DNA of 64,000 nucleotides from Escherichia phage vB_EcoM-P3322 (PV191315.1), one strand, 5' to 3'. Positions 17,436-50,410 are shown, numbered from the stretch's first letter. Translations and numbers: made by a program. The notes: generated by a model not told the origin, from the sequence alone.

Positions 17436-17669
17436 CTATTTTTTATAAAATTTTTCTGCTGTGATATTCTTCCCAGTAGGCTTAACCACTTGCAAGATCT
17501 TATCATGTGCCGAACGTCCAAAAGAGTAAGATCCGTACACGGTAAACCAATAATCCCCGTTCGGTTGAACGGTTACGGCGGCGTACGGTGTACCTCTTTC
17601 ATTATCCCCGATGAAGTGAGAAACATTACCGTTAACATTTGGTTTAGTGCTTTTAATTTGTTCGATCAT
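17436..17669 (-). CDS. hypothetical protein
   Basis: 77-aa ORF, AGGAG RBS, preceded by promoter-hairpin module. Confidence 0.5.
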   Translation of the reverse strand: MIEQIKSTKPNVNGNVSHFIGDNERGTPYAAVTVQPNGDYWFTVYGSYSFGRSAHDKILQVVKPTGKNITAEKFYKK

Positions 17670-17687
17670 GATATGACTCCTAAATCA

Positions 17688-17746
17688 GGCGGGAAACATT
17701 CCCGCCCTACGTGATAAATGATAATGTAAGCGTGATCCGGTGTCAA
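17688..17746 (-). promoter_or_regulatory. promoter + 5' GC-hairpin module
   Basis: rc: TTGACA (17741-17746), ~17-nt spacer, -10, then CACGTAGGGCGGGAATGTTTCCCGCC hairpin. Confidence 0.55.
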
Positions 17747-17880
17747 TAGGTAGGATTGTAAAGATTTGATAGTTTATCTCTTTGATGTTTTGTTGTTTGA
17801 TAGATGTTAGCTATCAATATATAGCGGGGTCGTCCGGTGATTATCTTCCCCTGCTCCCAGGTGCCGCCCGTTCAATAAGT

Positions 17881-17913
17881 ATAACAAAAAACAGGACAAA
17901 AACAAGCCCTGTT
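17881..17913 (-). terminator. terminator-like hairpin
   Basis: AACAGG...CCTGTT stem followed on minus strand by TTTTTGTTAT. Confidence 0.4.
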
Positions 17914-17921
17914 TATTTATC

Positions 17922-18056
17922 TTAAAACCAGTTGCCAACCGTTTCCAATAGGTCACTGACTACCAGGACAACATTAATCAGCACATATTCAACCAGGAAG
18001 GGAATAAGCGCCAGCGTTGCTACTACGATCCCCATTGTGATGATTACCTTTCTCAT
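17922..18056 (-). CDS. small hydrophobic peptide
   Basis: 44-aa ORF (MRKVIITMGIVVATLALIPFL...), single TM segment. Confidence 0.35.
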   Translation of the reverse strand: MRKVIITMGIVVATLALIPFLVEYVLINVVLVVSDLLETVGNWF

Positions 18057-18058
18057 GG

Positions 18059-18343
18059 TTAGCGGCTTACGTAAGCTTTACCGTTTACGGTCATCGGTAT
18101 GGCCTCAAGGTCTGGATCTTCCTTAAGGTCGCGTGCAAGCTCACCGCAGCGGATACCCTCGAATCCGTGGTATTCTGTCGCGCCGTCCTGGAAAGTTTTA
18201 GCGGCAAGGCATAGGCGATAATTAACACCGATCCGGTTTACCGCGTTGATATCGGTTAACGTGATGGATTCAGGCAAATCATTAGCCATTACAGGCGCGT
18301 TAATACCAACAACCAGGGCAACTACTGCGATCATCTTTTTCAT
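18059..18343 (-). CDS. secreted small protein
   Basis: Signal peptide MKKMIAVVALVVGINAPVMA. Confidence 0.55.
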   Translation of the reverse strand: MKKMIAVVALVVGINAPVMANDLPESITLTDINAVNRIGVNYRLCLAAKTFQDGATEYHGFEGIRCGELARDLKEDPDLEAIPMTVNGKAYVSR

Positions 18344-18398
18344 GTGTCTATCCTCTTCCTATTGCGTTTAATGGGGGCGTTACCGCCCTGCTTATGGT

Positions 18399-18635
18399 TT
18401 ATTGATTGATGTTATAATGAAAATTATTTTCTTCAATAGCTTTTAAAATAAAAGCCGTGATCGCTTTCGTGTCTACTTGTTCGAACGTATCAGAATAGCA
18501 CCAATAATAATCATCCCCTACTTTCGGCGGGTAAACCTGGACAAGGAGATCGCCACCTGGTTGATCTATAAGCTCAACATGCAAGCCGGATGATTCAGCG
18601 GTTTTAACGGCGGTTAATACTGTTGCAATACTCAT
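18399..18635 (-). CDS. hypothetical protein
   Basis: 78-aa ORF; GC hairpin 18651-18666 in 5' leader. Confidence 0.5.
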   Translation of the reverse strand: MSIATVLTAVKTAESSGLHVELIDQPGGDLLVQVYPPKVGDDYYWCYSDTFEQVDTKAITAFILKAIEENNFHYNINQ

Positions 18636-18679
18636 AATCTTTTCCTTTCTGATGTGGGGCGTTGCCGCCCCTTTGTTGA

Positions 18680-18979
18680 TTAGATCGCTGTTTCCAGTAG
18701 TTCGGCTAACGTCTTACCGCCTGATAGTTGGTCTAACGTTTGCTCTTCTGGCAAGAAATTAGCTGATATTAATCCGACTTGATTTCCTTTGTGCCAATTA
18801 GCTTGACGGATGATTCCATCCTTTAAAGATTTTACCGCCATTGTGCAACCGTCGCCAAATGATTCATTTTTATGATCCATCACTTCATAAGCGCCCAGCT
18901 TGCTACTGTTAGGCACCATTAACGCGAATACATCACCAACAACCAGTTTTTCTACGGTAATAATAGCGATAGTTTCCAT
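18680..18979 (-). CDS. hypothetical protein
   Basis: 99-aa ORF, GAGGA RBS, module upstream. Confidence 0.5.
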   Translation of the reverse strand: METIAIITVEKLVVGDVFALMVPNSSKLGAYEVMDHKNESFGDGCTMAVKSLKDGIIRQANWHKGNQVGLISANFLPEEQTLDQLSGGKTLAELLETAI

Positions 18980-19007
18980 TTTACTTTCCTCATTATCGGC
19001 GGCACCA

Positions 19008-19064
19008 TTGCCGCCCTACGTGGTAAATATTAGCACACTGGCGATCTGTGTCAATACTTTTTAT
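19008..19064 (-). promoter_or_regulatory. promoter + 5' GC-hairpin module
   Basis: rc: TTGACA, 17-nt spacer, TAATAT, CACGTAGGGCGGCAATGGTGCCGCC. Confidence 0.55.
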
Positions 19065-19447
19065 TCAATATAAATCAAATTATCTTCACCAATGTAAGCC
19101 GACACGTTCGGCATAAACTTAGCTGCATTGGTTAGGCGGTTGGCTGTGTTAGTGGTGTATATTTCAGGGCGATCCCAAAAGCCTACGCCGTGACCGTTAC
19201 GGGTAAAATGTAAATCATTCCCGATCTGGTTGGCTGTTGCGCCGTCGCTCATTGCCTCAGAGATAGCGGCAAGATTAGCATTAATAAAGGCTGTTACATC
19301 CTGGGCGATCCGTTGATCTGCGCTAGGAGAAAAATCATAATCGTCTAAGTTATCAATAAAATTACCTTCATGATCCCTTGCTGATTCAGCAAAAATAAAG
19401 GCTTCTTTATAGCCGTTGATGATTTCAATAATGATTTCTGTTTTCAT
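19061..19447 (-). CDS. hypothetical protein
   Basis: 128-aa ORF. Confidence 0.55.
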   Translation of the reverse strand: MKTEIIIEIINGYKEAFIFAESARDHEGNFIDNLDDYDFSPSADQRIAQDVTAFINANLAAISEAMSDGATANQIGNDLHFTRNGHGVGFWDRPEIYTTNTANRLTNAAKFMPNVSAYIGEDNLIYIE

Positions 19448-19668
19448 GCTGTACGCTCGACAATAATAATAGTTTGCGGGATCTCGTTTTCTACTACTAA
19501 CAAGGCTTTTTTCTGTGTGATAGATATTTTAACACGTTGTAAAGTAGCGGTAAAATCTTTCATTTCATTATGCGCGGATTTAGTACAATGCCAGATCTCA
19601 GGCTTACCAACTTGTAAGCCGCGTAAAAATTCCGTTTTGCCTGTTTTGTTCGTGATCATTTGTTTCAC
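19444..19668 (-). CDS. hypothetical protein
   Basis: 74-aa ORF. Confidence 0.5.
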   Translation of the reverse strand: MKQMITNKTGKTEFLRGLQVGKPEIWHCTKSAHNEMKDFTATLQRVKISITQKKALLVVENEIPQTIIIVERTA

Positions 19669-19669
19669 C

Positions 19670-19774
19670 TTAACCGATACCGTGGGAAGATAGGATCATA
19701 TTAGCCATAGTTGCAACTACTCCAACCGATAACGCCAGGCCAACCACTGCAACCGTGAAAATTTTCTCTAACAT
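19670..19774 (-). CDS. small hydrophobic peptide
   Basis: 34-aa ORF (MLEKIFTVAVVGLALSVGVV...) directly downstream of a module; track ORF extended through the promoter. Confidence 0.3.
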   Translation of the reverse strand: MLEKIFTVAVVGLALSVGVVATMANMILSSHGIG

Positions 19775-19793
19775 GATTCTACCCTCATTAATG

Positions 19794-19854
19794 GGCGTTG
19801 CACCATTGCCCCGCCCTACGTAATACACTTTACTAGATAACAAATTATTGTCAA
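19794..19854 (-). promoter_or_regulatory. promoter + 5' GC-hairpin module
   Basis: rc: TTGACA (19849-19854), -10, TACGTAGGGCGGGGCAATGGTGCAACGCCC. Confidence 0.5.
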
Positions 19855-19995
19855 GCTTTATTTTACTTCCCAAACGGAAAATTCGCTGCCTGTTGGGATC
19901 ATTTTTTTAATCTTGTTTGCTGCCGCTACCAGGTCAACGGCTTGTACTGTAATAATATAACCAATTGTCGAGGCTGTTGCGTTGAAAGTTTTCAT
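19816..19995 (-). CDS. hypothetical small protein
   Basis: 59-aa ORF (MKTFNATASTIGY...), AAGGG RBS; 3' end overlaps downstream module. Confidence 0.35.
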
Positions 19996-20014
19996 TATAT
20001 TGCCCTTTAATACA

Positions 20015-20037
20015 GGCGGGATTAATCCCGCCTTTTT
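20015..20037 (+). terminator. terminator-like hairpin (plus-strand orientation)
   Basis: GGCGGGATTAATCCCGCC followed by TTTTTG on plus strand, inside minus-strand block. Confidence 0.4.
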
Positions 20038-20039
20038 GA

Positions 20040-20210
20040 TTACTCTTCATTATCGCCGTTATAGTATTCAATGCCGTTTTCATCGGTTACGGTGATGTTA
20101 ACGCCACCGATAGCAACACGATCACGGGCAAACGTCATAGCTTCATTTAAATCTTCAGACCAAAAAATATTGTGACCTTTGCGCGATACATAAAACATAG
20201 TCGGGATCAT
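20040..20210 (-). CDS. hypothetical small protein
   Basis: Start at internal ATG (rc 20208-20210, MIPTMFYVSRKG); longer track ORF would run through the upstream module. Confidence 0.45.
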   Translation of the reverse strand: MIPTMFYVSRKGHNIFWSEDLNEAMTFARDRVAIGGVNITVTDENGIEYYNGDNEE

Positions 20211-20232
20211 GATTTGTTTCTCTTCTGTTATG

Positions 20233-20293
20233 AGCGGTGGACCATTCCGCCGCCCTATGTGGTAAACTTTACTACGTTGTTTGCCTGCTGTCA
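20233..20293 (-). promoter_or_regulatory. promoter + 5' GC-hairpin module
   Basis: rc: TTGACA (20288-20293), -10, CACATAGGGCGGCGGAATGGTCCACCGC. Confidence 0.5.
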
Positions 20294-20295
20294 AA

Positions 20296-20580
20296 CTATT
20301 TTTTAATGTTTTGCCCTACAAAATCGATCACTTCCTTAAGCTGTCTCTCTGTCATGATCGTACCTGGTAACTCTTCTTTAATTTCTTCCGGTAAATAGAT
20401 ATTACCGCGCCAGGTTAACAAACAACCGTTTTGATCTTCGCAGATAGAATAAGAAAACATCCACTCGCAATCATTTTCAAGCTCCCAAAAACACAAAAAG
20501 TCTTCTTTCCCTAAGTTTTCAACGGTTAAACATAATCCGCGACGTGCTGCATAATTAGTTAGGCTTTTTGTGATTTTCAT
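20296..20580 (-). CDS. hypothetical protein
   Basis: Start at internal ATG (rc 20578-20580, MKITKSLTNY). Confidence 0.5.
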   Translation of the reverse strand: MKITKSLTNYAARRGLCLTVENLGKEDFLCFWELENDCEWMFSYSICEDQNGCLLTWRGNIYLPEEIKEELPGTIMTERQLKEVIDFVGQNIKK

Positions 20581-20599
20581 GATTTTTCTCTCTTCTTGT

Positions 20600-20657
20600 G
20601 AGCGGCACCATTGCCGCCCTACAAGATACATATTACCAGATTAAGCGGACTTGTCAA
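20600..20657 (-). promoter_or_regulatory. promoter + 5' GC-hairpin module
   Basis: rc: TTGACA (20652-20657), TAATAT, TTGTAGGGCGGCAATGGTGCCGCTC. Confidence 0.55.
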
Positions 20658-20658
20658 A

Positions 20659-20769
20659 CTATTTTTTCTTTTTCTTTGCTTTCAATCGTCTAAGGTTACG
20701 GCTGGACTTATTGCGCAAGGCGCTTAGATCGTCGTACCCTTTCCATGCTTGCATATCTTTCGGATTCAT
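20659..20769 (-). CDS. small basic protein
   Basis: 36-aa ORF (MNPKDMQAWKGY...KAKKKKK) with AAGGGGA RBS. Confidence 0.35.
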   Translation of the reverse strand: MNPKDMQAWKGYDDLSALRNKSSRNLRRLKAKKKKK

Positions 20770-20778
20770 GTTATCCCC

Positions 20779-20940
20779 TTACTTGTTAGCCGGATCATAT
20801 ACCAGGACCGCGCCGCTTGCTTTCACGCTTTCCGCTTCATAGTTGCGCAGATCGTTTTCTGTAAGATTGAGCGCGATCACTTCCTCGATCTCAACGCCAG
20901 CGGCAAGGGCGATCTCTTTGATAATATCTGTTGTTTTCAT
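20779..20940 (-). CDS. hypothetical small protein
   Basis: Start at internal ATG (rc 20938-20940, MKTTDIIKEI). Confidence 0.4.
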   Translation of the reverse strand: MKTTDIIKEIALAAGVEIEEVIALNLTENDLRNYEAESVKASGAVLVYDPANK

Positions 20941-20950
20941 GGTGTGCACC

Positions 20951-21070
20951 TTATAAGATGATTGATAAGATAGTGACAACGAAAGCGATTATACTGATGG
21001 CAAATGTCATCTTTTTACCTTCGGATACTGCCGGATTTTCTACCGTGTATTCTACTGTGTACTTGCTCAT
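20951..21070 (-). CDS. small membrane peptide
   Basis: 39-aa ORF with C-terminal TM segment FAISIIAFVVTILSIIL. Confidence 0.35.
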   Translation of the reverse strand: MSKYTVEYTVENPAVSEGKKMTFAISIIAFVVTILSIIL

Positions 21071-21093
21071 CGTGTAATCCTCTCGTTTGCTTT

Positions 21094-21150
21094 GGGAACT
21101 ATTCCCGCCGCCCTATGAATTAAATATACACTATCTCAAAATGATTGCAA
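21094..21150 (-). promoter_or_regulatory. promoter + 5' GC-hairpin module (TTGCAA -35 variant)
   Basis: rc: TTGCAA, -10, TTCATAGGGCGGCGGGAATAGTTCCC. Confidence 0.5.
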
Positions 21151-21168
21151 GCCTTTTTCTAAATTATT

Positions 21169-21453
21169 TTATTCAGTAAACAAACCATCATTTACAACGG
21201 CGGCGATGATCTCCCGTGCCATTGATTCAGGGAAAGGGGCGCTATAGTCCTGGCTTGTCTCATCGGTATCGGTGATCCAATGATAAGCTAACGAGTAAAA
21301 GCCTTTACTAACTGTTTTCAGTGAGATGATGATCACTCGGTCAAGCTTATTGGTGAATGTTGCCGTTAATGTGTTACCCTCCTGCGTCATGTTGGACAAG
21401 TAAGCGAGATCATTAATCAGGGAAAACATTAGCACGGTGTTAGCTTTACTCAT
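21169..21453 (-). CDS. hypothetical protein
   Basis: Start at internal ATG (rc 21451-21453, MSKANTVLMF) with GAGGA RBS. Confidence 0.5.
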   Translation of the reverse strand: MSKANTVLMFSLINDLAYLSNMTQEGNTLTATFTNKLDRVIIISLKTVSKGFYSLAYHWITDTDETSQDYSAPFPESMAREIIAAVVNDGLFTE

Positions 21454-21471
21454 GATTGCATCCTCAAAGGG

Positions 21472-21530
21472 GCGCGGCACCATTGCCGCCCTACACGATA
21501 ACTATAACACAATGTAAAACAGGGTCAACC
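21472..21530 (-). promoter_or_regulatory. promoter + 5' GC-hairpin module
   Basis: rc: TTGACC, TATAGT, TATCGTGTAGGGCGGCAATGGTGCCGCGCC. Confidence 0.5.
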
Positions 21531-21731
21531 TTTATTTTTCCACGGTGTCAGCTTGTTAATCATTGGTGATAAATAGCGTTTACCAACGTAAAACAGTACG
21601 CCAACTGATGCAACGGCGGCGACCTCATGCATAGCCGACGGGAAACGGGTATCATAATAAGATCCAATAATAGCAATAGCGGCAACGGCTGCAACGTCGA
21701 TAATGATTTTCTCTTGTTTTGCGGTGATCAT
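21525..21731 (-). CDS. small membrane protein
   Basis: 68 aa with two hydrophobic segments. Confidence 0.5.
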   Translation of the reverse strand: MITAKQEKIIIDVAAVAAIAIIGSYYDTRFPSAMHEVAAVASVGVLFYVGKRYLSPMINKLTPWKNKG

Positions 21732-21752
21732 AGTATTTACCTTTTTGTATGG

Positions 21753-21810
21753 TGGGGAACTATTCCCCGCCTGATGTAATACAGTTTAACAGGTCCGGTT
21801 ATGGTGTCAA
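21753..21810 (-). promoter_or_regulatory. promoter + 5' GC-hairpin module
   Basis: rc: TTGACA (21805-21810), -10, ACATCAGGCGGGGAATAGTTCCCCACC. Confidence 0.5.
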
Positions 21811-21816
21811 CCACTT

Positions 21817-22002
21817 TTAAAGATATTTTATGCTAATGACGTTTTCAGGTTTTACCTTGTTATAATGTGCATCAACATAGATCAAACCATCGTCAGAAAA
21901 GCCCAGGATCACGCCCTGCGCGATAAAACCGTACTCGTCACGGTAACGCACGGCTATTTTTAATGTTGCGTTGTAGGCTGTTTTAAGCTCGTTTAAAGTC
22001 AT
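21817..22002 (-). CDS. hypothetical protein
   Basis: 61-aa ORF. Confidence 0.45.
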   Translation of the reverse strand: MTLNELKTAYNATLKIAVRYRDEYGFIAQGVILGFSDDGLIYVDAHYNKVKPENVISIKYL

Positions 22003-22021
22003 TTTTGTTTATCCTCTACAT

Positions 22022-22051
22022 GTAAAAAGAAAGGGCGCTTGATGCGCCCTT
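22022..22051 (-). terminator. intrinsic terminator
   Basis: AAGGGCGCATCAAGCGCCCTT hairpin followed on minus strand by TTCTTTTTAC. Confidence 0.6.
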
Positions 22052-22057
22052 GTTATG

Positions 22058-22204
22058 TTAATCCTCTAAATCCATCCAATTATATTTGTCACTCTTCCCG
22101 CGCTTTGTTTTATTACGCTTGTCACCTTTGCGGATCACTTCCTCGTTCCAGGCCTTGCGGATCTTGGAAGATTGAATTTTTTCTGCGCGATTAGATGTAT
22201 TCAT
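22058..22204 (-). CDS. small basic protein
   Basis: 48-aa ORF (MNTSNRAEKIQSSKIRK...) between module and terminator. Confidence 0.4.
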   Translation of the reverse strand: MNTSNRAEKIQSSKIRKAWNEEVIRKGDKRNKTKRGKSDKYNWMDLED

Positions 22205-22221
22205 TTTGTTTCCTCTTTATA

Positions 22222-22277
22222 TGAGCGGCACCATTGCCGCTATATTGTTAATTTAAACTGTTTTGTAAAATTGTCAA
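22222..22277 (-). promoter_or_regulatory. promoter + 5' GC-hairpin module
   Basis: rc: TTGACA (22272-22277), spacer, -10, TAGCGGCAATGGTGCCGCTC. Confidence 0.5.
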
Positions 22278-22283
22278 GGTTTA

Positions 22284-22637
22284 TCATTCATAAGAGCAAG
22301 CAAGGATCACGCCTGCAATATAAAGCCAATAATTTTCCCTTTCTCGTTGGATTTTATCATCGCTGCTATTCTCTTTAATGTATCCCCAGGATGTTAACAA
22401 GCGATCAATTTCCCAATATTCGAAAGCTATATTAATATCTGATGGCAAACCTTGTAACCATGATGCAAGTGCTTTAACAATACTATAATTAAAACGTGAT
22501 TGATTATCAGGGTACCAGTACTCGGAATTAAAACGGCGCATCAATTCCGCGATCTTCTCTTTTTCGGTTGTAATACCGTAATCATTAAAATCGATAGCGG
22601 CAAGGATGTACTCTTTAATTGCATTTTGTGCTTTCAT
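22284..22637 (-). CDS. hypothetical protein
   Basis: 117-aa ORF. Confidence 0.5.
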   Translation of the reverse strand: MKAQNAIKEYILAAIDFNDYGITTEKEKIAELMRRFNSEYWYPDNQSRFNYSIVKALASWLQGLPSDINIAFEYWEIDRLLTSWGYIKENSSDDKIQRERENYWLYIAGVILACSYE

Positions 22638-22654
22638 GGTCTTTCTCTCTTTTT

Positions 22655-22712
22655 AGCGGGAACTATTCCCGCCCTACGTGTAACAGTTTACTGAAAATTA
22701 AATCCGTGTCAA
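22655..22712 (-). promoter_or_regulatory. promoter + 5' GC-hairpin module
   Basis: rc: TTGACA (22707-22712), -10, CACGTAGGGCGGGAATAGTTCCCGCT. Confidence 0.55.
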
Positions 22713-22715
22713 GCT

Positions 22716-22937
22716 TTATTTTGTTACTACCATTTGGTACCCTGTTTCAATGTTAGTAAATACTGTTATCCCGTCCTGGCGTTCACTCATTAGCATACAA
22801 GGCGCTAACATCCTTTCTACTGCCTTGCACTCATTGTAAACGGCGGTTATGTCTCCTGCGGCCTTGTCTTCTGTGGTGAATGTATCGTTTATGTAAACTT
22901 GACTAGCGACAACGGCGACAATAGCGAAAGTGATCAT
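22716..22937 (-). CDS. hypothetical protein with hydrophobic N-terminus
   Basis: 73 aa; MITFAIVAVVASQVY signal/anchor-like start. Confidence 0.5.
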   Translation of the reverse strand: MITFAIVAVVASQVYINDTFTTEDKAAGDITAVYNECKAVERMLAPCMLMSERQDGITVFTNIETGYQMVVTK

Positions 22938-23010
22938 GATATTTTTCTCTTTATGTGTTTCTATTAGTTGATATTACAGCAATTCGCAGATTATTTTTTA
23001 GCAATTCGTG

Positions 23011-23229
23011 CTATTTACTCATAACAGTATCGAAAACAAATTTTTCTTTGTTGTCAAAGCTCACGTATCCGATTCTACCACGCAAGCCGCAAGTAGTGCC
23101 GTATTCGTAACCGTCAAGACCTTTAACCTTCCAATCCACGCCCATTAAAACCGCATTATATTTCTGACCAACTACAAACGCGCCACCAGTTGATTCAATG
23201 CAAACAACTTTAATTTTACGGATTGCCAT
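23011..23229 (-). CDS. hypothetical protein
   Basis: 72-aa ORF. Confidence 0.5.
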   Translation of the reverse strand: MAIRKIKVVCIESTGGAFVVGQKYNAVLMGVDWKVKGLDGYEYGTTCGLRGRIGYVSFDNKEKFVFDTVMSK

Positions 23230-23265
23230 TTTCTTTCTCTCTTTCTGGTGATTGGTTTCTCTTCT

Positions 23266-23305
23266 CTATAGCGCCCATTGTAAGGCGCTATAACGAAAAG
23301 TCAAC
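23266..23305 (-). promoter_or_regulatory. promoter with palindrome spanning the -10
   Basis: rc: GTTGAC -35, 16-nt spacer, TACAAT; 9-bp arms TATAGCGCC...GGCGCTATA (23266-23291) flank the -10. Confidence 0.45.
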
Positions 23306-23307
23306 GA

Positions 23308-23475
23308 TTATTTTTTAAGGCTTAAAGTACCTAACTTGTCAGCATGACGCAGACCAGGGAATATCCATTTGCCTGACTCATCTTTCACCGGGGCTTTAAG
23401 CGTAGCGCCCAGGTTGGCGGCGTTAACTTTACGTGCAACGTTGCGAGCGGCTTCACGGGTAGCGAAAGTGATCAT
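23308..23475 (-). CDS. hypothetical small protein
   Basis: 55-aa ORF (MITFATREAARNVARKV...). Confidence 0.4.
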   Translation of the reverse strand: MITFATREAARNVARKVNAANLGATLKAPVKDESGKWIFPGLRHADKLGTLSLKK

Positions 23476-23499
23476 GGTGTTTTCCTCTTCTCTTTGTTA

Positions 23500-23561
23500 G
23501 GCGGTGGACCATTCCGCCGCCTTGATGTAATACAGTTTACTTTATTTTATTAAGATTGCAA
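23500..23561 (-). promoter_or_regulatory. promoter + 5' GC-hairpin module (TTGCAA variant)
   Basis: rc: TTGCAA, -10, CATCAAGGCGGCGGAATGGTCCACCGCC. Confidence 0.5.
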
Positions 23562-23567
23562 GCGGTT

Positions 23568-23783
23568 TTATGAAATAATTGTCAAAGTAAAATCATAAGA
23601 CTGATTTAATTTATATTGTACTTTATTGCCGTAGTAGTCACCTTTACGTAAAGATCCGCGAATACCTATCACATCCTTTACATCTTTAAGATTTTTTACG
23701 CCTGTAATGTCTTTATTGAAATACTCGTCATCTGAAAATAAAACTTGACTTGCATTTTTTAACAGTGTACGGATATTAGCCAT
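23568..23783 (-). CDS. hypothetical protein
   Basis: 71-aa ORF. Confidence 0.45.
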   Translation of the reverse strand: MANIRTLLKNASQVLFSDDEYFNKDITGVKNLKDVKDVIGIRGSLRKGDYYGNKVQYKLNQSYDFTLTIIS

Positions 23784-23806
23784 CGTGATAATCTCTCTTC
23801 TGTTGT

Positions 23807-23864
23807 GAGCGGCACTATTGCCGCCCTACGTAATACAGTTTACTCTTTTTCTTTCCGGTGTCAA
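23807..23864 (-). promoter_or_regulatory. promoter + 5' GC-hairpin module
   Basis: rc: TTGACA (23859-23864), -10, TACGTAGGGCGGCAATAGTGCCGCTC. Confidence 0.55.
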
Positions 23865-23873
23865 CAATCTTTT

Positions 23874-24101
23874 TCAGATTAATTCATCCAGGCATAACAG
23901 GCGATCAACGTTGAGATCGGTTAGGCTGATGGTTGGCACCTGGTAGGATTCGATGTACTCGACGCTTGCATATTCCCCAAAATTAGCAACAGCCCACTTA
24001 TTCAAGATCTCACATACATCATTAATCTTTTTGTTTGTTACAACTGCAATGACCTGGGAAGTGCCAACGGTGCCGGATACGCGAACAATATTGATAGCCA
24101 T
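23874..24101 (-). CDS. hypothetical protein
   Basis: 75-aa ORF. Confidence 0.45.
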   Translation of the reverse strand: MAINIVRVSGTVGTSQVIAVVTNKKINDVCEILNKWAVANFGEYASVEYIESYQVPTISLTDLNVDRLLCLDELI

Positions 24102-24122
24102 AATCTTTAATCTCTCTGTTTT

Positions 24123-24182
24123 GGCGGGAAACCACTTCCCGCCCTATGTGATACATCTTACACTAATTTTAAACGTTGTCAA
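24123..24182 (-). promoter_or_regulatory. promoter + 5' GC-hairpin module
   Basis: rc: TTGACA (24177-24182), TAAGAT-type -10, CACATAGGGCGGGAAGTGGTTTCCCGCC. Confidence 0.55.
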
Positions 24183-24191
24183 CTGTTTTTA

Positions 24192-24431
24192 TTACATTCC
24201 AACCATCGCGGCACGGATCGCAGTAGTGCTATATTTGAAACCGTCTGGCGTTTTATCTTGTCCAGTTTGTTCCAGAAAAAGCATCATATCCCGCGCCGCA
24301 TCATTACGATTAGCATTAGCGTTAATAAAATCTTGGGCCAACCGGTATAACGATTCATCGTTATTAATCCAAAGGCTTACATTCCAATGAGTTTTGTTTT
24401 TGTGACCGTTGTACATTTTAGATTTAGCCAT
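24192..24431 (-). CDS. hypothetical protein
   Basis: 79-aa ORF. Confidence 0.45.
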   Translation of the reverse strand: MAKSKMYNGHKNKTHWNVSLWINNDESLYRLAQDFINANANRNDAARDMMLFLEQTGQDKTPDGFKYSTTAIRAAMVGM

Positions 24432-24465
24432 GATTTTTCTCTCTTTTTCAGTGAGGCGGGAAGTG

Positions 24466-24514
24466 TTCCCGCTCTCTATGTAATACAGTTTACTCTTTTT
24501 ATTCGTGCTGTCAA
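24466..24514 (-). promoter_or_regulatory. promoter + 5' GC-hairpin module
   Basis: rc: TTGACA (24509-24514), -10, CATAGAGAGCGGGAACACTTCCCGCC. Confidence 0.5.
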
Positions 24515-24520
24515 TGCTTT

Positions 24521-24886
24521 TTATAAATCTTTTTTACGTTTTACATCGCTCGCATGACTGTATACAGTGATCCCATTGTCACGGCAAAAACGGGAAAGAT
24601 ACGCGCCGCGTGAAAACTCTTTACCTTCCATATTAATAACCTTGCTAAATTCTTCTAGGGCAACGGTATCAAAATGATCCCCATAGCCATATTGAAACGG
24701 AACGTTAACTACTTCGATCAGTTTACCGCCGATCTCAACATCAACCATCAAAGAGAAATAAGTATTACCATAAGACTTTTGAAACCAGCGACGGGCGCTA
24801 ATATGTACCGCTTCAATGCTGGATAGTTCAATTTTAGCAGTGTTAGCCAGGGTAGCATAAGCAGAAACATTGATATTTTTAGCCAT
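24521..24886 (-). CDS. hypothetical protein
   Basis: 121-aa ORF; degenerate module upstream (24890-24975). Confidence 0.5.
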   Translation of the reverse strand: MAKNINVSAYATLANTAKIELSSIEAVHISARRWFQKSYGNTYFSLMVDVEIGGKLIEVVNVPFQYGYGDHFDTVALEEFSKVINMEGKEFSRGAYLSRFCRDNGITVYSHASDVKRKKDL

Positions 24887-24981
24887 AGTCTTTAATCTCT
24901 TTTGATTAGTTAGGAGTATTCCCGATAAAAGTTATTATGCTTATACTATCACTCATTGTCAATAGTATAAGACTAAAACTT

Positions 24982-25161
24982 TTAACGATAATCGTTATAG
25001 GCTTTATTGACCTGGCGAATGTAACATTCGAAAGCAAGATCAATGTATTCGTATTCACGCACATAATCACCATAGGTCACTACATACATTTTTAAAGTTT
25101 CCTCATAAGCCAGGAGGATCGAATCTAAACCTATAATCTCAGTTTTTGCAATGATAGCCAT
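24982..25161 (-). CDS. hypothetical small protein
   Basis: 59-aa ORF (MAIIAKTEIIGLD...). Confidence 0.4.
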   Translation of the reverse strand: MAIIAKTEIIGLDSILLAYEETLKMYVVTYGDYVREYEYIDLAFECYIRQVNKAYNDYR

Positions 25162-25181
25162 GATGTTAACCTTTTATTGTT

Positions 25182-25238
25182 GGCGGCACCATTGCCGCCC
25201 TACGTGATAAACTATACCAGAATTTTAAACAGTGTCAA
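25182..25238 (-). promoter_or_regulatory. promoter + 5' GC-hairpin module
   Basis: rc: TTGACA (25233-25238), 16-nt spacer, TATAGT, CACGTAGGGCGGCAATGGTGCCGCC. Confidence 0.6.
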
Positions 25239-25244
25239 CCGTTT

Positions 25245-25607
25245 TTATTCGTAAATTTTACCGCTTTCGGCCCATACCATAACGCGGCGCATACTATCCC
25301 AAGTGTTTTGATCCAAGTTTAAGCCGTGCAACTCTTCGGTACTTCCCAGACCAGGTACCGCTTTGTTGTAAGTTGCATATAAGCGCCCTTGATACTCATA
25401 CGCCAGAGTAAGATCCGTTTGAATCATCTTTTTAAGCATAGCATTAAGCATCATATTAGCGGCATGTTGATCACGTTTTAGCGGTAACATATCAATAAGG
25501 GCGCGATAAGCTGAAACATGAATATCAACCGTTTCACGTGGTAAATTTTTCATATCATCACGGAAAGATACCAGATTAAACATGATAGTATTGATTTGCT
25601 TGCTCAT
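25245..25607 (-). CDS. hypothetical protein
   Basis: 120-aa ORF. Confidence 0.5.
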   Translation of the reverse strand: MSKQINTIMFNLVSFRDDMKNLPRETVDIHVSAYRALIDMLPLKRDQHAANMMLNAMLKKMIQTDLTLAYEYQGRLYATYNKAVPGLGSTEELHGLNLDQNTWDSMRRVMVWAESGKIYE

Positions 25608-25628
25608 TGTGTTACCCTTTTTTGTTTT

Positions 25629-25689
25629 GGCGGGGAAGTATTCCGCCGCCCTATGTGATACATCTTACCAGATTAAAAAACGTTGTCAA
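25629..25689 (-). promoter_or_regulatory. promoter + 5' GC-hairpin module
   Basis: rc: TTGACA (25684-25689), 16-nt spacer, TAAGAT (25662-25667), CACATAGGGCGGCGGAATACTTCCCCGCC. Confidence 0.6.
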
Positions 25690-25698
25690 GAATATTTT

Positions 25699-25794
25699 TT
25701 AGAAAATAATAACCGCTACTACAACCCAAAATGGAACGGCTAGAATGATAGCGTTAATCGTTCCAACCGTCAAGCTATTTTCTTTATTAATCAT
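25699..25794 (-). CDS. small membrane peptide
   Basis: 31-aa ORF (MINKENSLTVGTINAIILAVPFWVVVAVIIF). Confidence 0.3.
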   Translation of the reverse strand: MINKENSLTVGTINAIILAVPFWVVVAVIIF

Positions 25795-25822
25795 TGTAAG
25801 CCTCTTGCATAATTTCACTATT

Positions 25823-25880
25823 AGCGGCACCATTGCCGCCCTACGTGGTAAATATTATGCCAGTGGCGGCGATATGTCAA
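25823..25880 (-). promoter_or_regulatory. promoter + 5' GC-hairpin module
   Basis: rc: TTGACA (25875-25880), 17-nt spacer, TAATAT, CACGTAGGGCGGCAATGGTGCCGC. Confidence 0.6.
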
Positions 25881-26443
25881 AGACTATTTTCAAAGTTTTC
25901 TAGTGCGATCCTTTTTTCTTCCTCTGTTGGCTGATAATCAGGAAAAGCATCAACACACAACAACGGCGGGATCTCTTCGTACTCTTCCTCTTCCGTTGTC
26001 TCCTCGTCTTCCTCCTGGGCTATGGCTGCAATTTTGGCTAATTTTCTTTCAGCTTGAATCAATTTACCATCAAGTACGTTTTTTGCCATGTTGTAAGCGG
26101 TCCAGGTGATGCGCTTACTTTCCAATGCTTCATCAAGCGCCGCTATCTTGCTGGGGTATTCATCCAGGACACGAAAAGCCGGATCAATTTTGTACAAAGG
26201 ATTATCTTTCGCGCCGTCGCTCGCATCTTCCGCACTGGATAAATCAGCGTTACCATTTGCCAGCCAGCCAGGGCGCACATAACGCGCTTTTACGTTGCCG
26301 TTACTACGTGCTAATCTGTTACCTATTTGCTCACCGCTATATCCCGTGGATTCATCGATAAGATGATCGGGAATGATGCGCGGATCATCTGCTTCATGTT
26401 TTACCCAAGACTGGATCACATATTCGCGGCCCATATTAACCAC
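25877..26443 (-). CDS. hypothetical protein with acidic C-terminal stretch
   Basis: 188 aa; EEDEETTEEEEYEE acidic segment. Confidence 0.55.
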   Translation of the reverse strand: MVNMGREYVIQSWVKHEADDPRIIPDHLIDESTGYSGEQIGNRLARSNGNVKARYVRPGWLANGNADLSSAEDASDGAKDNPLYKIDPAFRVLDEYPSKIAALDEALESKRITWTAYNMAKNVLDGKLIQAERKLAKIAAIAQEEDEETTEEEEYEEIPPLLCVDAFPDYQPTEEEKRIALENFENSL

Positions 26444-26693
26444 CTTTTTTCAACAATTGGCATACTTTAAAAAGACTTGCTGAATCCTTGCAAGGGTAGA
26501 AAGATGTACGATAATCACGTACGCCAACCTTGCGGATCTCGATGTTTTCGCATGTTGTTTGATCAAAGATATTTATTTCATCACGCCCCCTTATATAAAC
26601 ATAGTGGGGATGTATTAACGCATATTTTGCTAATCTGTAAAAAGCGTTATCTTTGAACGCGATCACGTGACCTTTTAATTTGATGTAAAACAT
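26436..26693 (-). CDS. hypothetical protein
   Basis: 85-aa ORF. Confidence 0.45.
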   Translation of the reverse strand: MFYIKLKGHVIAFKDNAFYRLAKYALIHPHYVYIRGRDEINIFDQTTCENIEIRKVGVRDYRTSFYPCKDSASLFKVCQLLKKGG

Positions 26694-26710
26694 TCTACCA
26701 CCTTACAAAT

Positions 26711-26766
26711 AGCGGGAACTATTCCCGCTTTATGTAACATATTAACAAATTATTCGTTAATGTCAA
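26711..26766 (-). promoter_or_regulatory. promoter + 5' GC-hairpin module
   Basis: rc: TTGACA (26761-26766), -10, CATAAAGCGGGAATAGTTCCCGCT. Confidence 0.55.
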
Positions 26767-26769
26767 GCC

Positions 26770-27042
26770 TTAAAGCAAAAACGCTACATCTTGCGCTTTT
26801 AGTGTAGTATCAACCATTTTCGGGCTTTTATAATCAACAAAGCGCGCGGTTTTTTCAATAGCGAAACCGAGATAATCTTGCTTGTTGAAATTACATTCTT
26901 TCTTAAATGTTTCCCGTGCAATGGCAATCGCTGCGTCCAGGGATAAACGCCCGTCAATATTGATATTAGCGAAAGATCCGCCACCGCTCATAGGTTTACC
27001 AGTGGTGCCAGCTACGATCATTGTTGCGCTATATGATGCCAT
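26770..27042 (-). CDS. hypothetical protein
   Basis: 90-aa ORF. Confidence 0.5.
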   Translation of the reverse strand: MASYSATMIVAGTTGKPMSGGGSFANINIDGRLSLDAAIAIARETFKKECNFNKQDYLGFAIEKTARFVDYKSPKMVDTTLKAQDVAFLL

Positions 27043-27067
27043 GATGATAATCTCTCTTCTGTTACGA

Positions 27068-27126
27068 GCGGGAAACCACTTCCCGCCCTATGTGATACAT
27101 CTTATCAGGTTGTTGTTTGTTGTCAA
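27068..27126 (-). promoter_or_regulatory. promoter + 5' GC-hairpin module
   Basis: rc: TTGACA (27121-27126), TAAGAT-type -10, CACATAGGGCGGGAAGTGGTTTCCCGC. Confidence 0.55.
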
Positions 27127-27132
27127 TACTTT

Positions 27133-34654: not shown

Positions 34655-34948
34655 TCACATTAAGACACGTTTTGTGTCGATGGGTGCATTATCAAACATG
34701 TTAAGAACATTGTCAAGCAGTTTTACTAATTCGTTTGTAATTTGTTCCTTTGAACGGGAGGAAGTGAGCACTTTGCTTTCACCAACAATATGCATAACTT
34801 TTATAGGAGCGTCTAAAATGATGTTGTGCTGACGATCCTCTTCAAAAGAAGCCAACCATTTCTCATTGTTACCGTGCAAGGCTACAATCACACCAAAACC
34901 GTTAATTGTTTCAGAAATATTCTTAGTTGCTAAAGTAATGTTCATCAT
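34655..34948 (-). CDS. hypothetical protein (first gene of minus-strand arm)
   Basis: 97-aa ORF next to divergent promoter region. Confidence 0.5.
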   Translation of the reverse strand: MMNITLATKNISETINGFGVIVALHGNNEKWLASFEEDRQHNIILDAPIKVMHIVGESKVLTSSRSKEQITNELVKLLDNVLNMFDNAPIDTKRVLM

Positions 34949-34980
34949 CTACCTCTCTTGTTAATGTTCATACATGATAC

Positions 34981-34996
34981 CTGAAAATAATTTCAG
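34981..34996. promoter_or_regulatory. perfect palindrome (operator-like) in divergent promoter region
   Basis: CTGAAA-ATAA-TTTCAG, 6-bp arms, between the minus- and plus-arm promoters. Confidence 0.4.
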
Positions 34997-35004
34997 ATCA
35001 AGTA

Positions 35005-35032
35005 TTGACATACTTTTTAATCTTGTTAAGAT
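35005..35032 (+). promoter_or_regulatory. sigma70-like promoter of plus-strand arm
   Basis: TTGACA (35005-35010), 16-nt spacer, TAAGAT (35027-35032); RBS AAAAGGAGAAAA and ATG 35063 follow. Confidence 0.6.
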
Positions 35033-35062
35033 CAACTCCTACCAAACAAAAGGAGAAAACAA

Positions 35063-35506
35063 ATGCAAAACATCCAAAACATCAAACTGACTTGGCCCGA
35101 AGCTAAAGAAGCAATGAAGGAAGGTAGACGTGTTGAGCACCGCCATTTTTGTGGTGGCGAATGGTTTGAGATGCGAGATGGTGTTATTCTCGACGAACAA
35201 GGTTATAACATGGAAACTTGGTTCAGAGGGGAAGCTTGGCAGGAAGAGGGTTGGTCTGTAATTGAAAAAGAAGACAGTAAGGAAGAAGGCGTGTTGTCTA
35301 ATGTAGAACGCGAGATGAGGGAAACAAAGATACCTGCTTTGGATTTTGTATACCTGGAAGAACTTGTGGCAGCATCTTTTGTAGCAGGAAACCTTTGGAA
35401 TACACCTGTTAGCCGACTGGAGAACCTAAATAACCCGTCTGCTCGTAATCACAAGCTTTATAAGGGTAAAGGTCACAACAAATTAAAGAAAGGAAAGAAG
35501 AAATGA
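35063..35506 (+). CDS. hypothetical protein, possible DUF2829-like N-terminus
   Basis: 147 aa; N-terminal LTWPEAKEAMKEGRRVEHRHF...W pattern; Lys-rich C-terminal tail. Confidence 0.5.
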   Translation: MQNIQNIKLTWPEAKEAMKEGRRVEHRHFCGGEWFEMRDGVILDEQGYNMETWFRGEAWQEEGWSVIEKEDSKEEGVLSNVEREMRETKIPALDFVYLEELVAASFVAGNLWNTPVSRLENLNNPSARNHKLYKGKGHNKLKKGKKK

Positions 35507-49359: not shown

Positions 49360-49418
49360 TTGACATAGTTCTTAAAAAGAGTAAGATGTATCACATGAAG
49401 CGGGGAATAGTTCCCCGC
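49360..49418 (+). promoter_or_regulatory. promoter + 5' GC-hairpin module upstream of terC
   Basis: TTGACA (49360-49365), 16-nt spacer, TAAGAT (49382-49387), GTATCACAT, hairpin GCGGGGAATAGTTCCCCGC; same class as the minus-strand modules. Confidence 0.6.
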
Positions 49419-49435
49419 AAAGAGAGGAGAAAAGA

Positions 49436-50410
49436 ATGCAACTTGGTTTCCCAATTATTGATGTAGTTGTTTTAGTTGGTATTTTAGCATTGTCTATTGG
49501 TATTGATTTCTTTGGTCACAAAGAAAATAAAGAAATTTCATTCAAATCCGCAGTTGGTTGGTCGATCTTTTGGATTGGTGTATCATTAGCTTATTATGGT
49601 TTTGTATACTTCCAACATGGTGCCGATTTTGCTAACTTGTTTTTAAGTGGATATGTGTTGGAAAAATCTTTGTCGGTAGATAACTTGGTAGTATTTGTAG
49701 CAGTATTCGCAAGTTTTGGTATTAAAAGCACACACTTGCAGCACAAGATTCTACTTTGGGGTATTGCAGGTGCGATTGTCTTCCGAGGTGTGTTTGTAGC
49801 AGTAGGCACTTACTTGTTAAGTTTGGGCTGGTATGTTAATATCTTCTTCGGTGCGGTCATCCTTTTCTGTGCAGCTAAAATGGTATTTGCTGGAGATAAT
49901 GACGCAGAAGTTGATTACTCTAAACACTGGGCTACCCGTATTGTTCGTAAACTGTTCCCTGTATCTAATAAAATGGATGGGGAGAAGTTCTTCACAATCG
50001 AAAATGGTGTTCGTGTAGCAACTCCAGCTTTGGTTTGCGTATTCGTGATGGAAATGGTGGATGTAATCTTTGCAGTAGATTCGGTTCCAGCGGTGATCGC
50101 AGTGACACAAGAACCCCTGCTTGTATTCTCTTCGATGTTATGTGCAATCTTAGGTCTACGTGCTCTGTTCTTTGTTCTTAGTGTCGCACTGAAGTATCTG
50201 GTTCACTTGGAGAAAGCAGTTATTGTGGTTCTGGTGTTTGTAGGCGTTAAACTGATGTATCACCCGTTTGCAGAAACATTGCATGAGAAAATGAGTTTCC
50301 TGCCAGCACATATTGATCCAACTATTAGTATGTATATCGTGCTTGGTACTTTGGCCCTTGGTGTTATTGCAAGCTTTATCTTCCCTGAAAAAGAAGAAGC
50401 TACTGTTTAA
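49436..50410 (+). CDS. terC: TerC/Alx-family integral membrane protein
   Basis: Multi-pass membrane protein with YVLEKSLSVDN and FAVDSVPAV...ILGLRALFF signatures. Confidence 0.85.
   Translation: MQLGFPIIDVVVLVGILALSIGIDFFGHKENKEISFKSAVGWSIFWIGVSLAYYGFVYFQHGADFANLFLSGYVLEKSLSVDNLVVFVAVFASFGIKSTHLQHKILLWGIAGAIVFRGVFVAVGTYLLSLGWYVNIFFGAVILFCAAKMVFAGDNDAEVDYSKHWATRIVRKLFPVSNKMDGEKFFTIENGVRVATPALVCVFVMEMVDVIFAVDSVPAVIAVTQEPLLVFSSMLCAILGLRALFFVLSVALKYLVHLEKAVIVVLVFVGVKLMYHPFAETLHEKMSFLPAHIDPTISMYIVLGTLALGVIASFIFPEKEEATV

Follow-up and report, generated by a model that had tools for sequence, protein, structure and literature searches.

A compact pair of predicted divergent host-type promoters in a phAPEC8-like phage, with a palindrome that is probably promoter DNA and not a dedicated operator

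In phage lambda the operator OR lies between the promoters PR and PRM, and in phi29 the p4 sites lie between A2b/A2c and A3. For rV5-like phages, bidirectional sigma-70 promoters have been predicted at the divergence points of four transcription blocks, as between rV5 genes 10 and 11 (Kropinski et al. 2013, PMC3606486). Two further systems concern the DNA around a promoter. One is the UP element, which has the consensus AAAWWTWTTTTNNNAAA (PMC2412878). The other is the PeSL of T4-type phages, where a sigma-70-like early promoter, preceded by an A/T-rich tract, is combined with a stem-loop that may cover the -10, lie between the two boxes or follow the -10 (PMC2839356); such cassettes have been linked to gene shuffling in these phages (Arbiol et al. 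2010, PMC2839356; Comeau et al. 2014, PMC4122927).

Here we describe a divergent junction within a stretch of 64,000 nucleotides of phage DNA, called the window below. Judged by its sequence, the window is from a Phapecoctavirus, i.e. a phAPEC8-like phage: the region around the junction is 98.6% identical to Escherichia phage phAPEC8 (2.5 kb compared), and 126 related phage records match it. The relatives belong to Phapecoctavirus and, at a greater distance, to Justusliebigvirus (phi92-type), both of the Stephanstirmvirinae. The nearest relative that we compared, ECO340P1, is 99.3% identical at the junction and 100% identical at a second site discussed below (23267-23292). Its genome layout has two divergent and two convergent junctions.

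Conservation was assessed in an alignment of 20 relatives, consisting of 17 GenBank relatives picked across 99% to 73% identity (over 400 bp) and three IMG/VR contigs. The IMG/VR search, made with the plus-arm protein, returned these three loci only, and GenBank phage records were added. It should be kept in mind that the 20 aligned relatives correspond to 11 distinct intergenic sequences from four or five lineages. Recurrence of motifs was scanned in the 64-kb window and in the 89 kb of the near-identical ECO340P1 that the window does not cover, which together represent a genome of about 153 kb. In the searchable literature we found no promoter mapping, start-site, expression or transcriptome data for Phapecoctavirus or Justusliebigvirus.

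At the junction the coding strand changes from minus to plus, in agreement with the switch of transcription stated in the original prediction, and the annotation of phAPEC8 and ASO2A is identical in this respect. The first gene of the minus arm is an open reading frame of 97 aa (34655-34948, minus strand, with the start codon end at 34948) that matches DUF7325 in Pfam and phrog_9016. The first gene of the plus arm encodes 147 aa (35063-35506, plus strand) and matches phrog_22208. Both genes are annotated in relatives, and the gap between them is 114 bp. On the minus side the Shine-Dalgarno region is AGAGAGGT (34951-34958, minus strand), whose ACCTCT core is invariant in the alignment and which the records of ESCO13 and phi92 already label as a ribosome binding site. 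On the plus side it is GGAG (35052-35055), within an equally invariant AGGAGA.

A promoter scan of the gap finds both of the promoters that had been proposed. The plus-strand promoter, P(+), is TTGACA-N16-TAAGAT at 35005-35032. Its -35 occupies 35005-35010, and a TG at 35024-35025 turns its -10 into an extended one (TGT-TAAGAT, 35024-35032). The minus-strand candidate, P(-), is TTGATC-N16-TATCAT and runs from 35001 to 34974 on the minus strand, with the -35 at 34996-35001 and the -10 at 34974-34979. Against the consensus P(+) scores 10/12, in addition to its TG extension, and P(-) scores 9/12. P(+) already carries a "promoter" annotation in one relative, ASO2A; what is new is the minus-strand promoter, which is unannotated.

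The conservation pattern is clear for both promoters. None of the six positions of the P(+) -35 varies in the 20 relatives, the TG is invariant, and the -10 hexamer occurs as TAAGAT, TATGAT or TAATCT. For P(-) the -35 is found as TTGATC, TTGACC or TTGATT, so that TTGA is invariant, and the -10 as TATCAT, TACAAT or TACTCT. In both -10 hexamers the T, A and T at positions 1, 2 and 6 are thus fixed and the three middle positions are variable, which is the pattern expected from selection for sigma-70 recognition. The layout of the gap, and the conservation of the key -10 and -35 positions across four diverged lineages, support the divergent promoter pair. We consider it well supported that the gap consists of a back-to-back pair of predicted host sigma-70 promoters, ordinary in kind, which would be recognized by the host RNA polymerase.

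If start sites are placed 7 nt past each -10, transcription would begin at about 34967 on the minus strand and about 35039 on the plus strand. The resulting 5' UTRs would be about 19 nt (minus) and 24 nt (plus) long, each with a conserved Shine-Dalgarno sequence. At these points P(+) and P(-) would start transcription of the two divergent early units of the phAPEC8-like phage.

A few small repeats are also present in the region. The perfect 10-nt direct repeat TAATGTTCAT occurs at 34,936-34,945 and 34,962-34,971, that is, the first codons of the minus gene are duplicated in its leader, and the leader copy creates an upstream ATGAACATTAA on the minus strand. A 9-nt perfect direct repeat, TCTTGTTAA, is located at 34,956-34,964 and 35,021-35,029. 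Neither of the two is kept in the phiWec or phi92 lineages. Further, GATC (Dam) sites overlap the -35 of P(-) (34,996-34,999) and the -10 of P(+) (35,030-35,033), within the repeat TTCAGATCAA / TTAAGATCAA. Control by Dam methylation is unsupported: neither GATC site persists in the phiWec or the phi92 lineage, and both are probably incidental.

P(+) fits a stereotyped class of early promoters that the promoter scan detects in the window. In this class an A-rich tract, either AAAAATAA or AATAAAAAGTA, is followed by TTGACA, a 16-nt spacer and (TG)TAAGAT, TAAACT or TAATAT. The architecture of P(+), together with the spacer motif TTTTTAATCT, is common to it and a promoter at 25689 on the minus strand, which is one of the cassette promoters described below. 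Members of the class have an AAAATAA-type tract at -46 to -38, where the frequency of A reaches 0.84-0.89 at several positions. In P(+) the positions from -46 to -38 are taken by the -35 of P(-), and a tract AAAATAAT is found one helical turn further upstream.

The two -35 hexamers are only 3 bp apart, and therefore the upstream zone of each promoter, where the alpha-CTD would bind, lies inside the spacer of the other. Counted from the predicted start of P(+), the segment 34981-35002 covers -59 to -38, and it matches the UP consensus at 10 of the 14 specified positions. A score this high is reached by 0.84% of the positions in the window, the background being 5.2 +/- 1.8 and the mean of the promoter class 7.2; in DNA of 30% GC we regard the match as suggestive. 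The arrangement is reciprocal: the T5 run in the spacer of P(+) is, seen from P(-), an A5 run at about -48 to -52.

It is in this segment that the palindrome is located. The perfect palindrome CTGAAA-ATAA-TTTCAG, with 6-bp arms, is seen at 34981-34996 both in the sequence itself and with a repeat finder. Its reported position in the minus promoter spacer is also correct: it fills the spacer of P(-) (34980-34995) and also reaches one base into the -35. Relative to P(+) it extends from -59 to -44.

The window contains 274 perfect inverted repeats with 6-bp arms and loops of 0-8 (about 4.3 per kb), compared with 195 +/- 19 in shuffled sequences. At least one is found in 27% of the phage's segments of 114 nt and in 31% of the shuffles of the region itself, and two are found in about 11%. 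The presence of the palindrome is within chance expectation (P ~0.3 per 114 nt). The region does contain two: a second palindrome with 6-bp arms, AAGTAT-TGAC-ATACTT (6-N4-6, 35000-35015), which the original prediction did not mention, was detected by the repeat finder and overlaps the -35 of P(+). As a functional dyad this second palindrome was rejected, and it appears incidental: the relatives keep four or five of eight pairs, with uncompensated changes, and in tuntematon two substitutions break two different pairs.

All eight phAPEC8-type relatives in the sample have the first palindrome in identical form, some of them being just 87-88% identical over the surrounding 400 bp. All six arm pairs are present in this clade only. 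In the other lineages three to five of the six pairs remain: three in the phiWec190/181 lineage (ACTAAAAATATTTCAG), four in the VEcB/PHB05 lineage (CAGAAACTAATTTCAA), and five both in BME3 (CAGAAACTAATTTCAG) and in the phi92 lineage (CAGAAATTAATTTCAG). The variation is distributed unevenly, with three of six positions variable in the left arm, three of four in the loop and one of six in the right arm. No compensatory changes between the arms were found among the 20 aligned relatives. What is invariant is AAA (34984-34986) and ATTTCA (34990-34995), i.e. an A-tract and a T-tract.

There is nevertheless some symmetry left in the alignment. The 16-mer starting at 34981 has the highest mean dyad symmetry of all positions, 5.8 of 8 pairs compared with 1.9 +/- 1.0, and the phi92 lineage has a perfect 12-bp palindrome of its own, GAAATTAATTTC, with the same centre. 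Shared ancestry and the self-complementarity of A-tract/T-tract DNA can explain this residual symmetry, although some selection for symmetry is possible. Most likely, the outer CTG and CAG bases that make the palindrome perfect are a clade-specific accident, and the palindrome is a by-product of A/T-rich promoter DNA.

Taken together, we think it probable that the junction is a compact pair of host sigma-70 promoters in which the palindrome is no dedicated operator. It would instead be an A/T-tract that forms the spacer of P(-) and probably acts as a distal UP-like element of P(+). On sequence grounds, the conserved A-tract and T-tract (AAA...ATTTCA) would serve one promoter as spacer and the other as upstream element at the same time. 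An RNA hairpin formed by the palindrome was considered and rejected: the fold reaches only -5.7 or -7.5 kcal/mol, and the palindrome lies upstream of both of the start sites placed above.

The original prediction had instead explained the palindrome as an operator for a regulator controlling both arms. In this explanation a dimeric regulator, from the phage or from the host, would bind between the promoters and shut off or coordinate both early arms. Several observations speak for it: the perfect 6+6 dyad is placed strategically, covering both the spacer of P(-) and the alpha-CTD zone of P(+); it is identical in the eight phAPEC8-type phages; mean dyad symmetry in the alignment peaks at its centre; and the phi92-type phages have GAAATTAATTTC at this same centre. 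However, the arms are not conserved together: three lineages retain three to five of the six pairs, with a variable left arm, a nearly fixed right arm and no compensation. By chance, about 30% of comparable regions would contain a palindrome this large.

Nor is there more than one copy of the site. When CTGAAANNNNTTTCAG was searched for with at most two mismatches, the window gave three matches, against 6.0 +/- 2.5 expected from shuffles, and one perfect copy. No further good copy of the motif was found in the other 89 kb of ECO340P1, by scans with a variable loop and with two mismatches, which leaves a single copy in about 153 kb. A candidate for the regulator is also absent from the neighbourhood. 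Among the nine flanking proteins, four from the minus arm and five from the plus arm, neither Pfam nor PHROG detects a DNA-binding domain, helix-turn-helix or other; the matches obtained are DUF7325, a phage tudor domain (Pfam) and unnamed PHROGs, all of unknown function.

The claim of an operator for both arms therefore did not hold up against the conservation of the arms, the single copy, the flanking genes and the chance level of the palindrome, and we now consider it unlikely. The residual dyad symmetry and the palindrome of phi92 are the reasons why we give it a low probability and not zero. A more specific version would be that CTGAAA-N4-TTTCAG in the phAPEC8-type phages is a single-copy operator, recognized by a small phage early protein or by a dimeric host factor that occludes the spacer of P(-) together with the alpha-CTD zone of P(+); this we regard as very unlikely. 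If it were true, the single-copy operator would be a one-site switch turning off both early arms, and GAAATTAATTTC in phi92 would represent a different specificity that has co-evolved.

The second alternative concerns the promoter of the minus arm and not the palindrome itself. An overlapping TTAACA-17-AATACT, running from 35029 to 35001, could drive the minus arm, alone or together with TTGATC-16-TATCAT. In that case the two promoters of the junction would face each other in interleaved positions, with the use of one excluding the other, and the minus transcript would carry the palindrome at its extreme 5' end. This promoter scores 9/12, as much as P(-), and there is hardly any variation in its -10 region (AGTATT on the plus strand). 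The invariance is, however, confounded by the overlap with the flank of the P(+) -35. Further, the TTAACA becomes TTAGCA in the phi92 lineage, and the AATACT has no T at position 1. TTGATC-16-TATCAT, on the other hand, has positions 1, 2 and 6 fixed and a variable middle in DNA that is common to no other element. We find it quite unlikely that the minus arm depends on the overlapping promoter.

A third possibility is that the conserved block ATTTCAGATCAAGTATTGACA, with the A-tract upstream of it, is a site where a nucleoid protein such as IHF binds or bends the DNA and thereby balances the two promoters. IHF has the consensus WATCAANNNNTTR, with an A/T-rich tract before it. The stretch 34990-35010 is the most conserved part of the intergenic region, with only 3 of 21 positions variable, and inspection by eye shows that GATCAAGTATTGA agrees with this consensus at seven of the nine positions specified, with an A/T tract starting about 8 bp before it. 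The agreement is imperfect, though, as it fails at the W and at the second T, and the block contains both -35 hexamers, which is enough to explain its conservation. A role as an IHF-type site thus seems improbable to a high degree.

Finally, the palindrome could be a weak host LexA (SOS) box that damps both early promoters until SOS induction. The core of the E. coli LexA site is CTG-N10-CAG with an A/T spacer, and among known boxes that of ssb starts with ACCTGAA and that of uvrA ends with TTCAGGT. We scored the sequence with a position weight matrix built from 26 E. coli boxes, using leave-one-out scores for the boxes themselves. Although ACCTGAAAATAATTTCAGAT is a CTG-N10-CAG with 10 of 10 A/T in the spacer, and the sole such site in the window, the LexA reading is extremely unlikely and was rejected: with this matrix the site scores 6.4 bits, under the range of the left-out boxes (at least 7.4 bits, median 18.9), it ranks 10th in the window, and it is unconserved in relatives, the left CTG being lost in the phi92, BME3, VEcB and phiWec lineages with scores of -2 to -15 bits.

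A similar arrangement had been proposed at 23266-23291, with 9-bp arms flanking a -10. The arms and the enclosed -10 are indeed there. The coordinates are really 23267-23292, the site lies between two minus-strand genes and not at a divergent junction, and it is a GC-rich stem-loop of another kind. The inverted repeat is TATAGCGCC-N8-GGCGCTATA, on the minus strand, and the promoter that it encloses is TTGACT-16-TACAAT, with the -10 at 23282-23277. Folded as RNA the element reaches -21.4 kcal/mol (z = -6.8). The core of its arms is invariant in six relatives and the outermost pair shows a compensatory change (T..A to A..T). The hairpin is kept in phiWec190 and PsgM04F despite a destroyed -35 and -10, and ASO2A annotates it as a terminator predicted by WebGeSTer.

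The second site belongs to an array of similar cassettes. Eighteen minus-strand copies lie between 17.7 and 27.2 kb (17,650-27,130) and one plus-strand copy at 49360 (49,360-49,440), about 19-20 in total, all before small genes. The order of elements in a cassette is an A-rich tract, TTGACA, a spacer of 16 or 17 nt, TAAGAT, TAAACT or TAATAT, the sequence GTATCACRTA, a hairpin and a Shine-Dalgarno sequence. The hairpin has a stem of 7-9 bp (GGGCGG.../...CCGCC), starts 10-12 nt past the -10, and folds with about -13 to -21 kcal/mol when flanks are included. These values are from single-sequence folds, as RNAalifold on the 18 cassette hairpins was uninformative owing to misalignment of the stems by MAFFT. 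No U-tract was seen 3' of the hairpins in the copies examined, and an Rfam scan of the whole window gave no family.

The position of the hairpin varies: it is downstream of the -10 in 18 copies, over the -10 at 23304(-), and around the -35 and spacer at 24962(-). In the last case a perfect inverted repeat with 10-bp arms, CTTATACTAT-N12-ATAGTATAAG (24,940-24,971), encloses the -35 and spacer of TTGACA-17-CATAAT (24962, minus strand). Inside the array there is also a perfect 20-bp palindrome, AGGCGGGATTAATCCCGCCT, at 20,014-20,033.

At the one cassette examined for this, many relatives cease to be similar to the window at about 23253, immediately after the hairpin and a conserved GAGAAGAGAAACCA, and have a different gene in place of 23011-23229. 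Position ~23,253 appears to be a mosaic breakpoint, and rV5-type phages match only the replaced gene. By its sequence features, the second site is a PeSL-like stem-loop in a repeated promoter-hairpin cassette, and no operator of divergent promoters.

We also compared the junction with the other divergent junction of ECO340P1 (93960-94444). It does not have the same architecture and was rejected as an equivalent, being an unrelated, A/T-rich repeat region of 480 bp. This region (93,961-94,443, outside the window) is non-coding, extremely A/T-rich, contains GTAC-rich repeats (GTACAGAGTACAGTACTTGAGTACAGAGTACT) and adjoins a tRNA cluster; it could be an origin or another regulatory region.

The value of the main result is mainly for annotation: it gives the most likely start points of two early units in phAPEC8- and phi92-type phages, which are widely isolated for therapy. 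A conserved and compact bidirectional promoter could also be reused in phage engineering. For similar predictions there is a more general lesson: a short palindrome in an A/T-rich promoter is no evidence for an operator unless it is conserved or recurs. A more useful by-product than the palindrome is the cassette array, which may explain the shuffling of small early genes.

How do these elements compare with known systems? The cassettes look like PeSLs as far as the sequence definition goes: they have a sigma-70-like promoter, an A/T-rich tract and a GC-rich stem-loop, and they are repeated before small genes of unknown function. All three placements of the stem-loop that define the PeSL subclasses occur in the window, and at about 23253 a putative mosaic breakpoint adjoins the one cassette examined in this respect. 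Termination and recombination would be candidate roles. The differences are that the phage belongs to the Stephanstirmvirinae and is not of the T4 type, and that its stems are GGGCGG.../...CCGCC and not the polyG/polyC of PeSLs. The PeSL papers in the searchable literature deal with T4-type phages only, and none describes such an array for Stephanstirmvirinae.

With lambda OR and the p4 sites of phi29 the junction has in common that dyad-symmetric DNA lies between or over two divergent promoters. However, the operators of lambda and phi29 are repeated, conserved as dyads and adjoin the genes of their regulators, and at the junction no such feature was found.

The E. coli UP element, which has subsites near -52 and -42 that are bound by the alpha C-terminal domain, is resembled in position (-59 to -38) and composition, and both the A-tract and the T-tract are invariant. 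In contrast to the E. coli element only the distal half fits well at P(+), since the -35 of P(-) takes up the place of the proximal subsite. In our view, the palindrome is probably best described as an A/T-tract, distal UP-like upstream element of P(+) that doubles as the spacer of P(-).

The promoter pair as a whole resembles that of rV5, also a large virulent E. coli myovirus, in the four transcription blocks and in the back-to-back promoters that are close to consensus, some with an extended -10. The two phages are placed in different subfamilies and no sequence homology was shown. In both phages the sites are predicted, but here their conservation in two genera adds support.
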